From a virus (Duplodnaviria > Caudoviricetes), in the IMG/VR virus record IMGVR_UViG_3300038674_000481, positions 1-30,408 of that record: a stretch of 30,408 bases of DNA. The stretch is one strand, 5' to 3'. The notes beneath the pieces are model-generated. The model did not search any database and was not told where the DNA came from. It was given only the letters and a program-made list of their open reading frames with translations. Both the position numbers and the translations under genes were made by a program. Positions 236 to 29,733 of the stretch are shown one piece after another (position 1 is the stretch's first letter; the number at the start of each line of letters is the position of its first letter).

Positions 236-307
236 AGCCGTTGAAGGGAATCGAACCCTCGACCGTCTGGTTACAGGCCAGTTATTCTTCCACTGAACTA
301 CAACGGC
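236..307 (-). tRNA. tRNA-Thr(UGU), atypical (C33, A27:A43 mismatch), no encoded CCA
   Basis: Cloverleaf: acceptor GCCGTTG/CAACGGC, D arm GTTC-AGTGGAA-GAAT, anticodon arm ACTGG-CCTGTAA-CCAGA, T arm GAGGG-TTCGATT-CCCTT, discriminator U. Confidence 0.85.
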
Positions 308-1785: not shown

Positions 1786-1982
1786 TGCCCCGCCCCTCCC
1801 TAATTCTTCCCCTTGTAACAATAATGGGAATCCCTGAGCTCGTCAAAATGGGTTACGATCAACAGCAGATAGCAGATTATTACAACACACATGAGTATTT
1901 CCAAAGAGCTGGAATCAAAGTATCGCAGCAGAGGATATCCGATTATATGCGAAAATACGATATTAAGAAGAGTGTACCGTAA
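1785..1982 (+). CDS. small HTH-like DNA-binding protein (cargo gene 3)
   Basis: GYDQQQIADYY...VSQQRISDYMRKYDI resembles a helix-turn-helix. Confidence 0.65.
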   Translation: MPRPSLILPLVTIMGIPELVKMGYDQQQIADYYNTHEYFQRAGIKVSQQRISDYMRKYDIKKSVP

Positions 1983-2047
1983 ACTATATATATAATCGGT
2001 ACATAGTATGTATTGTCGAAAGACAAAAGGTGACTAAGATGACAACA
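1975..2047 (+). promoter_or_regulatory. 73-bp promoter/RBS/start module, copy 2
   Basis: Direct repeat of 1329-1401; last 37 nt identical. Confidence 0.85.
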
Positions 2048-12164: not shown

Positions 12165-12569
12165 TTATGATTTTTTTCCAGTCAGTATTTTGATTACGCC
12201 AGCCTCATTCTCCTTGAGTGCTGGTCTTTCAAATGATCTTGCCGGGATGTTCTTTGAAGGAGCTCCTAGTTCGTGGACTGCGGCTATTTCTGCCCTGGAT
12301 CCGAATACACCTATTTTTACTGTGTCCTTGCCTTCCATCTTGTGAGTTACCTGGCTAATGAGTTCACCGGTGTCAATAAGCGGGGTACTGCTTCCTTTTG
12401 CAGCAATTGTTGCAGGTTTCAGTCCCGGACTCAGACCAGAGGTTATTTTGTCAACCATCTTCCCTGCTATATATTCCCCTGCCTGCTCGAGCTTGAGTAC
12501 AATATCCTCCTCAATCTTAGTTCCAAACTTGCCAATGTTCCTGGCAACATCGTCAGCATTTGATGGCAT
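12165..12569 (-). CDS. tail completion/neck protein (virion morphogenesis family)
   Basis: LKPATIAAKGSSTPLIDTGEL and AAVHELG..IPARSF motifs; start placed at MPSNADD. Confidence 0.8.
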   Translation of the reverse strand: MPSNADDVARNIGKFGTKIEEDIVLKLEQAGEYIAGKMVDKITSGLSPGLKPATIAAKGSSTPLIDTGELISQVTHKMEGKDTVKIGVFGSRAEIAAVHELGAPSKNIPARSFERPALKENEAGVIKILTGKKS

Positions 12570-13419
12570 GTTTTGACATCTCCGATTGATGTATATTTCT
12601 GCATGCATTGGAGCAATATAACAAAGACACATGGCCATATTTCTCAGGGAATACACCAATACATTCCTTGTACTGTGTCTTTGTGACTCTGATTTCTTTA
12701 TTACACCTTGGATTGGAACACGGGATTTGGATTGTATCGAGATTCAGATGGATAGATCTGTCTTCTTCTATCGGTACATCTTCTTCCCATACCCTATCAA
12801 TAGCATGCTTGCCCTTCATACCCTTGCGAATATTAGACACTGCTGCCTGTTGTTCGTTCCGTGGAAGGGTTGCCAGCCTCAGTACATCGGACTTGGTGAT
12901 CTGGACATCACCCGACAAGATCTTATCTCTAATGTCCTTCCCACAGTTAGTAGCTATAGAATCGACTGCGATAGCAAACTGTTCTGCACGCTGTACCGTT
13001 TTACCATTGACACGGAATTGTTCGCCTATTTGTTCGCTTTTGCTCGATTGGACATTTTGTCCTTTCGATGACGCATCACGATTTATGTTTTTAACACGGT
13101 CTGATTTTTGTTCATGGTACATCTTCCCCATCAAATAATCTCGCTGTTCAGAAGTGACATTTCTCCGGGCCAATTGGTTTCTGATCATGAAGTTTTTTGC
13201 TTCTTCCCGGGTGGAGAAATCCATTTCGTGGACTTCAAAGGAGATACCTAATTCTTTGCAGATCTTGTACCGATTGTGACCATCCACGATGATACCACGC
13301 CAGATATCAAGAGGCTGAGTACATCCATACTGCCGGATGTTTTCTTTTAGACCTGCATACTCGTCCTCTCGTAGAGGCATTATCCAGCTCTTGAATTCCG
13401 GATCAATCAACAATTCCAT
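12553..13419 (-). CDS. ParB/Srx-like N-terminal domain protein with C-terminal Cys cluster
   Basis: IDPEF..PL...EY..LKENI...G...P...IVDGHNRYKIC; NQLARRN; CSNPRC...CSNAC. Confidence 0.8.
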   Translation of the reverse strand: MELLIDPEFKSWIMPLREDEYAGLKENIRQYGCTQPLDIWRGIIVDGHNRYKICKELGISFEVHEMDFSTREEAKNFMIRNQLARRNVTSEQRDYLMGKMYHEQKSDRVKNINRDASSKGQNVQSSKSEQIGEQFRVNGKTVQRAEQFAIAVDSIATNCGKDIRDKILSGDVQITKSDVLRLATLPRNEQQAAVSNIRKGMKGKHAIDRVWEEDVPIEEDRSIHLNLDTIQIPCSNPRCNKEIRVTKTQYKECIGVFPEKYGHVSLLYCSNACRNIHQSEMSKHAIKC

Positions 13420-13600
13420 TCAGATATGCCTCCGGTTTAATATTAGCTATTGTGAAATTTAGTAGCTTATCGTCTTTTGAAACTTTGCAAAAAGAAACTA
13501 TGTTGGCATGGAAGAAAAGAGGCTCACGATGCACATCACATGTGTTTCTAGTGGGGCAGACTGCAGTACACGGAGCCTCCGTTTCAGGGCACAAATACAT
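13403..13600 (-). CDS. 65-aa Cys-rich hypothetical protein
   Basis: TATA-like CTATATAAT about 22 nt upstream; overlaps the start of the ParB-like gene. Confidence 0.45.
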   Translation of the reverse strand: MYLCPETEAPCTAVCPTRNTCDVHREPLFFHANIVSFCKVSKDDKLLNFTIANIKPEAYLNGIVD

Positions 13601-14301: not shown

Positions 14302-14536
14302 TGTTCCACTTTTTCTTCACATAGTCTGTGATCAGGATCATGGTGACCGCCGTATACTCTTGAGGTATGGCCTTCTGTTCCCATGCCATTACGATATATC
14401 CAAGCACCACAAGGATTACCACAATCTCATCTACGATAGAATTGATGAGACTTCCCAGGCCACTCATGAAACCCGTGTCTTGCTTCAGTACAATTGGTTC
14501 TAATTCACCTGCCATCATTTGCCCTCTTAGACTCAT
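14291..14536 (-). CDS. small two-TM membrane protein, holin candidate
   Basis: Two hydrophobic segments and a basic C-terminus. Confidence 0.5.
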   Translation of the reverse strand: MSLRGQMMAGELEPIVLKQDTGFMSGLGSLINSIVDEIVVILVVLGYIVMAWEQKAIPQEYTAVTMILITDYVKKKWNSEM

Positions 14537-14967
14537 TCTGATATTTTTTGATCAATAGCTAGACTAACCTCTATTGTGCTCTGTTTCCCGGCAGTATCAG
14601 AAACTTCTACGGCCTCTTTGATTACAACTGCTTCTGCAGACTTAGCACGGGCCTCGTACATTGCGGCCACATGGACGGCTGCGTCTTTGATTACAATTTT
14701 TGTACCCTTTGCAAAGTTCAGGATCTCTTCGGTGTTACTTGCAATATATGCATCAATACTTTCAATGGTGTCAAGGACAGTCTCGCCGCTTAAATATGGG
14801 ATTGTCCACCACAATGCAGCTTCTTCATACTGCCAGATTATTTGTTCTCCGGACTCATCTACCCGGGTGATTTGTTTGATATCCCAACGACACAAGAGCC
14901 GAACTCGGCCCCCTCCTACTTTGTCAATACTGATTTCTATAGGCTGTACTGTAGATTCAACTACCAT
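14533..14967 (-). CDS. hypothetical protein, possible fibre-associated chaperone
   Basis: Directly downstream of the Mtd-like gene; GAGGTGA RBS. Confidence 0.5.
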   Translation of the reverse strand: MVVESTVQPIEISIDKVGGGRVRLLCRWDIKQITRVDESGEQIIWQYEEAALWWTIPYLSGETVLDTIESIDAYIASNTEEILNFAKGTKIVIKDAAVHVAAMYEARAKSAEAVVIKEAVEVSDTAGKQSTIEVSLAIDQKISE

Positions 14968-14971
14968 GTGA

Positions 14972-16624
14972 TCACCTCTTCAAAAACTCAAGGCGAGCGC
15001 CGTAAGCCCGACCGGAAGTCGTAGCACCGTAATACGAAGACAGACAGCCGACACCCGCACTCGGCCCATAAAACCAAAGGCCGCCGAAAAGCAAACAAGT
15101 TGGGGTAGCACTGGCTGTTCGGATATAGTAATAGTCGCACAAGTATGTACTACTACTACCAGTGGTGGTTGCACCCATCATCATATATTTGAGGTAACTA
15201 TCTGTGAAAACGGCATTGATGTATCCGTTAGCTGCTATGCCTGCATTCGGTGGTACAGACACAGAATCTACGTATTTACCAGCGGTGGTGACCTCTGAGG
15301 GGAATGATGTGCCTGCTGCGGGGATGGTTCTGTGTACAGTGTCGTAGAATCTAATGCCTCCTATCCACTTGTAGACATTGCCCCAGAGGTTTTCAATGCC
15401 TCTATACACGATCGGCCTTTGTCCTGCTGTTCCTGTGCCAGTTCCTGTACCATTTGTTCCTATGTTGGTATCTGCTGAAAGAGCTCCAGTGAGAAGCCCA
15501 GCAAAATCTGTTCCTGAAGCTAGATCCACAATGCCTTTTTCAAGGACTGTCTGAGAATCAAGCGATGCGTATTCGGTGTAGAACAATAGCCTCAATGCGC
15601 TGAGAGTCCAGATATTAGTAATACCCCATGCCGTAGATGCAATGTTGTTGGCATAGGTCTCTGCGTCTGTAATATAGAGCCTGCCTGAATTTGGCAAATC
15701 TGGGTATGCAACTGCTCCTGTAATGGGCCGTTTGTTTGTTGCGGATCTCAGTTTGAAAGTAGATCCATCCAAATAACCACTTGCTTCATAGGCTGAAACG
15801 AATAGTTCTGCCTCTGTACCACCTCTTTGTAAGAAGGCTGGGTGCAGTTCGAAACCTGCATATTGAATAGGACTGATCCACCACTTATGTACGGTTCCAT
15901 CTGTGGAGAATTTGACATAGAATTTGGGTATCTTGACCATTACGTTTCCAGATGCACCGGTTAGGTCTATGCCATCACCACGAGCATTTGTACCGTATGT
16001 CACCACGCCCGTGCTGGGATTAATGACACACCTCTTCATGTTGCCCCAGATAATATGGTTGTTGAAATATGAGGATGTTAATCCGGTAACCGTATTTCCG
16101 TCAATATCAATCCGTGTTAGGGATGGACTGGATGAAGCAGTATTCCAGGATATTCCAACTACATCAGATTTTGATGTACCTGCCACAATGGCAGGCAAAG
16201 AATTCCATACAGTTGCTCCATCTCCAATCTTGAGCCAACTATTTGTAGTATCAAAACAGGGTTCCCCAGCTGCAAGAATAGGGTTTGCTGTGGCAAGATT
16301 GGATGCACTATCGTGTCTGAACTGAATCATATCCTGGAGATTAGCTGTGCCGCCAATTACACCAGGTCTGGAATTGTCCACCATTATACGCAGTTTGTCC
16401 GTATTTTTCACATTGCGCCCATATTCATATGAGATGACCAATCCAGAAACTGTTATTTTTGTGTACCTCGACCTAGGAGCATTTGCATCATACAGCACTT
16501 CTCCAGATGTGATGTCCACAATGTGGGAGATCTGCTCGGCAGCGATGCCTGTATATAATGAGGTTAGGGTTATGGTTTTTGCTGTTGAATCGATAGTATA
16601 TTGTCCATCAGGAATTGCGTACAT
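14972..16624 (-). CDS. Mtd-like fibre/receptor-binding protein (anchor domain + Mtd_N-like domain + C-type-lectin-fold C-terminus)
   Basis: IQFRHD..NPILAAGEPCFDT...LKIGDG..WNSLP; YRGIENLWGNVYKWIGG; terminal GGxW..G..AG....L.........GARL. Confidence 0.85.
   Translation of the reverse strand: MYAIPDGQYTIDSTAKTITLTSLYTGIAAEQISHIVDITSGEVLYDANAPRSRYTKITVSGLVISYEYGRNVKNTDKLRIMVDNSRPGVIGGTANLQDMIQFRHDSASNLATANPILAAGEPCFDTTNSWLKIGDGATVWNSLPAIVAGTSKSDVVGISWNTASSSPSLTRIDIDGNTVTGLTSSYFNNHIIWGNMKRCVINPSTGVVTYGTNARGDGIDLTGASGNVMVKIPKFYVKFSTDGTVHKWWISPIQYAGFELHPAFLQRGGTEAELFVSAYEASGYLDGSTFKLRSATNKRPITGAVAYPDLPNSGRLYITDAETYANNIASTAWGITNIWTLSALRLLFYTEYASLDSQTVLEKGIVDLASGTDFAGLLTGALSADTNIGTNGTGTGTGTAGQRPIVYRGIENLWGNVYKWIGGIRFYDTVHRTIPAAGTSFPSEVTTAGKYVDSVSVPPNAGIAANGYINAVFTDSYLKYMMMGATTTGSSSTYLCDYYYIRTASATPTCLLFGGLWFYGPSAGVGCLSSYYGATTSGRAYGARLEFLKR
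14987..15097 (-). other. DGR-type variable region (VR) candidate
   Basis: Only 8 A in 111 coding nt, none at third codon positions; variable codons are NNT/NNC; lies at the extreme 3' end of a CLec-fold gene. Confidence 0.75.
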
Positions 16625-16634
16625 CTATACCTCC

Positions 16635-16913
16635 TCACGTAACTGTAGCCGCCGGGTATGTAGACTCGAGTACAATTCTCAGTACATCGGTATTTTTCAC
16701 ATTGAGCCCGTACTGATATGTGATTACTCCGCCCGATACAGTTATGGGGACTTGTCTTGCACGGGTCTCATTAGCATCATACAGTACTTCTCCGGAGGTC
16801 ATGTCCACAATTCTTGAAACCTGTCCGGCTATAATATTGGAATATGTTGAACTTAATGTAATTGTTTTAGCTGTTGCATTAATTGTATATTCAGTCGATG
16901 GAACAACGTACAT
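16635..16913 (-). CDS. stand-alone paralog of the fibre N-terminal domain
   Basis: About 53/83 aa identical (hand count, ungapped) to the N-terminus of 14972-16624. Confidence 0.8.
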   Translation of the reverse strand: MYVVPSTEYTINATAKTITLSSTYSNIIAGQVSRIVDMTSGEVLYDANETRARQVPITVSGGVITYQYGLNVKNTDVLRIVLESTYPAATVT

Positions 16914-28645: not shown

Positions 28646-28816
28646 TCATGTCCTCGCCTCCTCGTTCACAATCGGTCCTGCTCTTGGTGCGTATTCCATC
28701 CAGTAGATATAGGCACCGTCTTCTCGTTGAGCGATGTTGATCTCACCTATTCGGCTATCAGGGATGTTGACACCATCGCCATTAGTGACCTTGACTTCAC
28801 GATAGACTATGTTCAT
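28646..28816 (-). CDS. 56-aa hypothetical protein (MNIVYREVKV...)
   Basis: GGAGGTGG RBS; TGATG coupling with the recombinase; hand-translated. Confidence 0.55.
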   Translation of the reverse strand: MNIVYREVKVTNGDGVNIPDSRIGEINIAQREDGAYIYWMEYAPRAGPIVNEEART

Positions 28817-29733
28817 CAGACCACCTCCACGCCGATCTCTTCCTGAGTGACCAGGCCAGATATGCCGAACTGTCTCTTGAGGGCAAACACTTCAGCTACC
28901 TTGCAGCACATTGCGGATTTGTAGGTTGCCCAGATATCATTATTTTTTTTGTACTCATCATACGATGCATAGGATATCACTGGCCTGCGTCCTGTGTGCC
29001 TGCATATAGCCCATGCTCCGATTACTTTCCCTCTGCTACCTTTCCCGAATGAATGCATCACTGTGCCTTTCTCAGCATCAATAGAGAACTCGTCGTTTTC
29101 ACATACGGCCATTGATTGAATGCCGTCAAAGGATGGATCTCTCTGAGCAGCTTTGAGATAGCCATCACGAGAGGTGATTATGGTGTGCATCTTGTCACTG
29201 TAGAATATCTCCTTTAGGAACGGATCCAAGCCATACTTGTTGGCTACATAGAGAAACATCTGAAGCTCACTATCCGTAGACCCTTTTGCTACGGTGTTTT
29301 TGATTGTCTCAATTTGCTCAGGTGTATACCCGTGCACAACTACAGTTGAGTTAGCAGTTTGTCTTCTTGCAGGGGGAGTAGATCTTTGTACAGGCTTAGG
29401 TGTTTCGACAGGCTTATCTTGCTTCGGTTCAGATGGTACATTGGCGGGGGTCTCTTGATTCTCTTGGTTGGTAGCCTTGTTTTCAGTTGGTTCCTGCCTC
29501 TCTGCTGATTCTACTGAAGCATATTCAATTGCTTCTTTCAATGCCTTGAATGGATCGTCCTGGAACTCTGTGTATCGTTCCGATCCAATGAATACAAAGG
29601 GTTCTTCTTTTTTGAAGTCCACTCCGTATACCTTCCCATTAATTGTTTGCTTCCAAATGTGCTCATTCCTGGGATCCTGCTCATATCCCATCATGCCTAC
29701 CATAGTTTGAATATGCTGTCTATTCCATGCCAT
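28816..29733 (-). CDS. bet: Bet/RecT-family single-strand annealing recombinase with N-terminal extension
   Basis: ELQMFLYVANKYGLDPFLKEI, TSRDGY, W....AMCCKVAEVFALKRQFGISGL..QEE. Confidence 0.88.
   Translation of the reverse strand: MAWNRQHIQTMVGMMGYEQDPRNEHIWKQTINGKVYGVDFKKEEPFVFIGSERYTEFQDDPFKALKEAIEYASVESAERQEPTENKATNQENQETPANVPSEPKQDKPVETPKPVQRSTPPARRQTANSTVVVHGYTPEQIETIKNTVAKGSTDSELQMFLYVANKYGLDPFLKEIFYSDKMHTIITSRDGYLKAAQRDPSFDGIQSMAVCENDEFSIDAEKGTVMHSFGKGSRGKVIGAWAICRHTGRRPVISYASYDEYKKNNDIWATYKSAMCCKVAEVFALKRQFGISGLVTQEEIGVEVV

Follow-up and report, generated by a model that had tools for sequence, protein, structure and literature searches.

A virus record of 30,408 nt (IMG/VR record IMGVR_UViG_3300038674_000481, our G000), analysed here in its entirety and called the window, contains a gene whose 3' end resembles the variable region (VR) of a DGR target with no template repeat (TR) or reverse transcriptase (RT) beside it, raising the question of whether this is a genuine VR and, if so, what became of its template. 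The record is linear and incomplete (CheckV 36%), and its products include a terminase, a Mu-like portal and capsid, tail proteins, a DNRLRE/disaggregatase protein and a RecT-like annealase. Our analysis showed the VR to be that of a real DGR target, a predicted adhesin, with the cassette missing at this site.

The only close homolog of the target with an organism name is Metho_1216 of Methanomethylovorans hollandica (P0017, 59% to the target). The target is also present in the G285 provirus, the sole carrier among 177 genomes of the methylamine-methyltransferase-bearing family, which has 13 of the 36 window ORFs in common with the window, the terminase at 70-73%. From P0017 and this provirus we infer that the host of the window virus likely belongs to the Methanosarcinaceae, and the hosts of related viruses are likely methane-making archaea. 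Bioreactors and digesters were the origin of the runs that cover most of the window stretch. A scan of genome contigs with the target protein as single query gave no match, and in a phylum sample 3 of 201 genomes matched, one of them with a real target.

Several side features were recorded in the window and the provirus. The terminase homolog of the provirus (L222) has an in-frame interruption of ~1.07 kb (661 aa ORF plus alignment gap), possibly an intein. Near the left end of the window lies a tRNA-Thr(TGT) gene (236-307, minus strand), either a viral tRNA or an attachment site. A 73-nt direct repeat (1329-1401 and 1975-2047, plus strand; copies 90% identical) has a TATA-like box in each copy and ends each time in the start codon of a small plus-strand ORF; the two copies are likely duplicated promoters. 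A ParB-like gene and a small Cys-rich ORF (12553-13600, minus strand) stand between the head-closure and neck genes.

Variable region and fold of the target protein

The features of the locus lie at the following positions of the window.

14533..14967, minus strand: gene X, 144 aa, a conserved gene that marks the cassette site, 54% identical to the gene after the RT of locus L003
14968..14986, minus strand: 3' tail of the VR, stop codon and empty cassette site, where relatives have a cassette of ~1.6 kb or a scar
14972..16624, minus strand: DGR target gene, 550 aa, with a duplicated N-terminal domain, Mtd_N and a C-lectin (CLec/FGE-type) domain
14975..16168, minus strand: C-terminal domain (aa 153-550), modelled with a DGR-type C-lectin fold (AlphaFold pLDDT 95.8)
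14987..15097, minus strand: variable region, codons 510-546 (C510-E546), followed by F-L-K-R-stop
16211..16327, minus strand: Mtd_N domain (aa 100-138; Pfam E 5.6e-14)
16635..16913, minus strand: 92-aa gene, paralog of the target N-terminus (direct repeats D1 and D4, 72-73% identity)
28816..29733, minus strand: RecT/Bet-like annealing protein (phrog_2780, E 1.3e-39)

The first-pass annotation had pointed to 37 adenine-poor codons before the stop, and recounting gave the same figures, 8 A in 111 nt with none at third positions, while the lowest 37-codon count in the other 30 long ORFs tested was 18. The run without third-position A extends over 42 codons, against at most 23 in other long ORFs; given the third-position A rate of the target gene (0.28), its p value is about 6e-4 with 550 starts scanned. 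Comparison with the closest sibling, L002, which encodes the same gene at 92%, showed 18 differences at codon positions 1-2 and none at third positions from codon 510, whereas 34 first- or second-position and 122 third-position differences were found outside the VR (Fisher p 3e-11). Expressed by site, 0 of 41 third positions differ from codon 510 on, as against 91 of 190 in codons 320-509. In 11 close homologs, 14 positions show at least five different residues, and 11 of these fall in codons 516-541; the homologous loci L003, L004, L006, L011, L016 and L025 have classic VR/TR pairs in which 92-97% of the mismatches lie at TR adenines. Gly/Ser/Ala-rich ends are indeed A-poor, but chance composition or protein constraint with no DGR history is refuted by the codon-position split and by the homologs' VR/TR pairs at the same place, and we give it next to no weight.

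When the window VR was compared with 27 TRs, the nearest still had 16 non-A mismatches. The TR that had been proposed by back-mutation of the window VR probably errs at the Gly/Ala/Arg scaffold codons, since A stands at these codons in the nearest real TR, that of L003 (AGC, AGG, ACT, CAC).

The best Foldseek match of the aa 153-550 model was TaqVP (5vf4; E 6.6e-13, TM about 0.5), followed by Mtd, and the sequence profile of the target also matched 5vf4 (E 1.7e-12). The modelled CLec fold thus carries the VR as in DGR variable proteins, and the earlier view of a DGR variable region on a CLec protein was borne out by the codon-position split, the fold model and the TaqVP profile match. A full-length model was set aside since its VR had pLDDT under 50 and it gave weak matches only. 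The target also matched phrog_5302, a tail family (E 1.7e-56), and is predicted to be a host-binding virion adhesin. Its description as a putative fibre draws on Mtd_N and phrog_5302; the gene stands among head and neck genes, outside the distal tail block.

The first ~90 residues of the target are a copy of the upstream 92-aa gene fused to an Mtd_N-CLec protein (duplicated stretches 16386-16602 in the target and 16675-16891 in the 92-aa gene). Most target homologs, of about 457 aa, have no such duplicate, and the counterpart of the 92-aa gene in the G285 provirus is a separate ORF. Gene X had no Pfam or PHROG match and is possibly an assembly partner of the adhesin.

The cassette site in the window and in related viruses

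That the record has no second VR copy, RT, avd or hairpin was confirmed by BLAST, an A-tolerant scan, HMMs and folding. Self-BLAST gave no VR/TR pair, the best other site for a TR in the A-tolerant scan had 31 non-A mismatches, and RT and accessory-gene HMMs found no match in six frames of the record (best E 2.7 and 4.9). Folding revealed no hairpin after the VR (-0.9 kcal/mol, z +1.7), whereas L002 has one with an 8-bp stem and a 5-nt loop (z -4.5). Thus none of the components of a complete DGR (TR, RT, accessory gene, hairpin) was found in the window, itself an incomplete record. According to the BPP-1 work (PMC3240598), phage DGR hairpins after the VR have a 7-10 bp stem with a GRNA loop, and homing in BPP-1 depends on the hairpin. 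At the intact L003 locus, too, no clear hairpin follows the VR, so a missing hairpin counts for little.

In intact relatives such as L003 and L004 the gene order is target, ~100-aa accessory gene, TR, RT and gene X, whereas in the window gene X begins 4 nt after the target stop. Among the 54 loci listed, with RT presence scored by tblastn and HMMs, gene X lies downstream of the target in 34, 11 with an RT between and 23, including the window, without (21 after three identical ones were merged); among the remaining 20, 7 have an RT. Several of the 23 loci in which target and gene X abut contain broken cassette remnants. Comparison of L024 with L003 and L004 revealed an exact 1.5-kb deletion with 100% identity on both sides, which places the final 19 codons of the RT directly after codon 19 of the accessory gene. 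The record of L024 (G363) is complete at 31.9 kb with 127-nt terminal repeats and has no RT or TR elsewhere in the genome; G368, 92% complete and with an accessory remnant, likewise has no RT.

Accessory-gene stumps of other kinds were found in L005, L179 and L008-L010. The accessory N-terminal motif K-F-S-E/D-F-A persists after the target in L002, L005, L024, L179 and L009, and across all loci, with the accessory genes counted, it was found 25 times in 5.5 million translated positions. In L002, the 75 nt between target and gene X contain the 8-bp hairpin and a truncated reading frame with KFSEFA. An insert of 75 nt is present at this junction in the runs X2, X3, X6 and X7, its ends in X5, and X7 has a second junction allele of 143 nt. 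A 28-row tree, from which 9 of the 37 intended rows were omitted, showed 7 changes in cassette presence, 6 of them forced by supported branches, a result indistinguishable from shuffled labels.

The accessory gene of L003 (L003:1263-1565) encodes 101 aa, is not recognisably Avd and has no PHROG or NCBIfam match; its Atlas look-alikes include a cluster with a 44% Phi29 SSB label and structural matches inside RT fusion proteins. The L003 TR (L003:1596-1710) has nine adenines outside AAY codons that appear as G in 69 of 72 VR cells (nine adenines in the VRs of L003, L004, L005, L024 and L174-L177). One of the nine is a synonymous third position, changed from GCA to GCG in 8 of 8 VRs. The pattern points to an A-to-G bias that depends on context, or to patchy incorporation of cDNA, in this DGR clade, and similar patterns were seen in L011, L016 and L025. 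In the DGR of locus L240 (G342), a single TR is accompanied by two VRs on the opposite strand.

Probable loss of the cassette and other possible sources of the variable tip

Two fates had been proposed for the window VR by the first-pass annotation, a variant frozen after loss of the cassette and diversification in trans by a host, helper or distant DGR; the analysis supports the former and not a host DGR, diversification by a helper virus being possible. We consider it probable that the cassette (accessory gene, TR and RT) was lost from this site and the VR tip frozen, as indicated by the relatives' cassette at the exact site, the deletion scars and an L002 VR unchanged five years apart. Because relatives carry the cassette and L002 retains a scar, an ancestor would have had target, accessory gene, TR and RT here, and the present tip would have arisen by mutagenic retrohoming. 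The cassette would then have been deleted, likely soon after it wrote the present tip, and in this lineage in at least three ways. The clean window junction could stem from deletion between similar ribosome-binding motifs at the target stop and before gene X. Since no parent with a cognate TR was found, the case for cassette loss in this lineage is drawn from the L002 scar and from relatives of ~60% identity.

Frozen tips are consistent with what was seen in the sequencing runs. The VRs of X2 (2023) and X5 (2018) differ from the window as L002 does, in count (19) and in letters where listed, and the JGI proteins P0001 and P0125 have the same VR as L002; in X1, X3 and X6 the VR is spanned by one contig each. 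Decayed cassette-less VRs occur in L014, L015, L162 and the G285 provirus. Deletion is plausibly favoured, since G stands in nearly all VRs at nine positions where the nearest TR has A, so that most new products of the DGR would be damaged. A cassette that moves between gene backgrounds by recombination may thus be deleted repeatedly once a working tip exists. Mosaic identity suggests that recombination between sister viruses, aided by an annealase, likely reshuffles VRs, cassettes and gene backgrounds, and the RecT/Bet-like protein is a candidate for the recombination that would move or remove the cassette.

A possible but clearly less favoured alternative is that the cassette was deleted and the VR is occasionally refreshed, through trans retrohoming or RecT-type recombination, by sister viruses that carry the cassette and share the cell. 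The abrupt end of third-position differences at codon 510 between the window and L002 fits such refreshment, as do 15 of 19 scored cassette-less VRs without third-position A (the scoring omitted 2 of 21 cassette-less loci and 1 of 16 intact ones). The VRs of L005, L024 and L174-L177 agree with the L003 TR at 72-73 of its 73 non-A positions despite 19-25% divergence in the 300 nt upstream, and in L174-L177 (0 of 73 mismatches) the identity is largely confined to the TR-homologous stretch. However, L024 and L005 are plainly cis deletions with the same pattern, showing that writing in cis followed by deletion also leaves a pristine VR behind a diverged upstream region, and the cassette evidently passes from one gene background to another before being lost.

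At least two quite different VRs accompany the 75-nt junction, the second and very different one being that of X3 (P0123); X6 departs from the L002 VR at codon 522, and in all X6 and P0122 show one or two changed variable sites relative to L002. This too favours refreshment, but the X3 VR has 11 differences to the window where the protein needs only 6-7, and it may stem from another TR. The hairpin is retained in L002, the window virus encodes an annealase, and avd, TR and brt function in trans from a plasmid according to PMC5758913. Against these points stand the same VR in 2018 and 2023 runs and the absence, from the six runs examined, of any contig leading from the target to a complete cassette, in contig data where rare variants are hidden and intact cassettes may be under-assembled owing to the repeat. 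It is doubtful that most viruses of this methanogen-virus group are non-autonomous DGR users, with targets rewritten through trans-retrohoming or recombination from a minority of cassette-bearing sisters; if true, one template would serve many genomes.

Related proteins of 774-792 aa (P0016, P0019, P0023 and P0128) have the same kind of VR internally, with ~190 residues beyond it. Short X2 and X3 contigs of the P0016 type match window 14985-15134 and co-occur with the window's relatives, and they could be the template donor's. L231/G365 was rejected as a donor with a P0016-type extended target, since its similarity is limited to an N-terminal piece and both VR and RT are absent from it.

An ordinary cis DGR whose cassette lies apart from the target, in the unassembled part of the genome, is improbable. 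The record is linear with a CheckV value of 36%, a related X3 contig of 34.7 kb is 4.3 kb longer and offers room for a 1.6-kb cassette, and PMC5758913 describes phage DGRs whose sole target is non-adjacent, at a distance of 20 kb. But CheckV underestimates this group (G363, with its terminal repeats, was rated 54%), and homologs of the window's end genes are 1.1 kb apart in the G285 provirus, so that little is likely missing. The gap in the record is likely about 0.7-4.3 kb, as judged from the G285 end-gene spacing and, with collinearity assumed, from the X3 contig. Moreover, no remote RT exists in G363 or G368, and the scars mark the original place of the cassette.

Rewriting of the viral VR by a DGR on the host chromosome is very unlikely. 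Of the 177 genomes from the likely host family, 4 contain a DGR-like RT with 35-40% identity to the L003 RT, but three of these have unrelated TRs and one has no pair, none matching the VR; the TR pattern with 3 mismatches occurs in 0 of the 177 genomes. In G285 itself the RTs are only distant (27-28%) and the VR is decayed. Searches elsewhere agreed in returning no cognate template. In IMG/VR the predicted TR had 0 matches and N-tolerant patterns returned the L002 VR only, in sequence sets that may omit records very near the window; JGI metagenomes gave 0 matches to the TR pattern, a weak result since no VR was returned either; and blastn against INPHARED and PLSDB found no match for a cognate TR or further VRs.

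Apparent cassette turnover and comparison with known DGR systems

The result for the window itself is modest, a known kind of target with its cassette gone. Its wider interest is that the cassette is absent from about two thirds of the syntenic loci (23/34) while the VRs are mostly still fresh, which implies that DGR-shaped adhesins of methanogen viruses are commoner than RT counts suggest. Surveys for DGRs take the RT as their starting point and overlook targets that have no RT nearby (PMC8144416). The cassette-less state is common among related viruses, and the mutator cassette seems to have been gained and lost repeatedly. A literature search covering the main texts of mostly open-access papers listed no report of recurrent DGR cassette deletion or cross-virus retrohoming. 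With near-identical L003/L004 to set against L024 and three junction alleles in one study, the question of frozen versus refreshed tips is testable.

The window target is a DGR target like Mtd, TaqVP and AdtA, but not a complete DGR. As in the BPP-1 DGR (mtd, avd, TR, brt), a 3'-terminal VR lies on a CLec-fold protein with Mtd_N, and in the window's intact relatives the differences to the TR are adenine-specific; unlike BPP-1, the window has no TR, RT, accessory gene or hairpin, and the 101-aa accessory protein of intact relatives is not recognisable as Avd. The VR segment aligns to the C-terminal GGxW...GAR segment of TaqVP from Thermus aquaticus (5vf4), although identity is 16-17% and the window target, on an archaeal-type virus, has extra N-terminal domains and no cassette. 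The archaeal virus ANMV-1 has an intact cassette with RT, Avd, 114-bp repeats and a hairpin, as reported by Paul et al. 2015 (PMC4372165). Its AdtA, as characterised there, resembles the window target by features, both being archaeal-virus DGR targets with a CLec domain and a proposed role in host attachment, but the window has no cassette. Finally, like the remote or non-adjacent DGR targets described by Wu et al. 2018 (PMC5758913), the window has a VR without an adjacent RT; those targets have their TR on the same genome, whereas in the window none was found and the site shows deletion.
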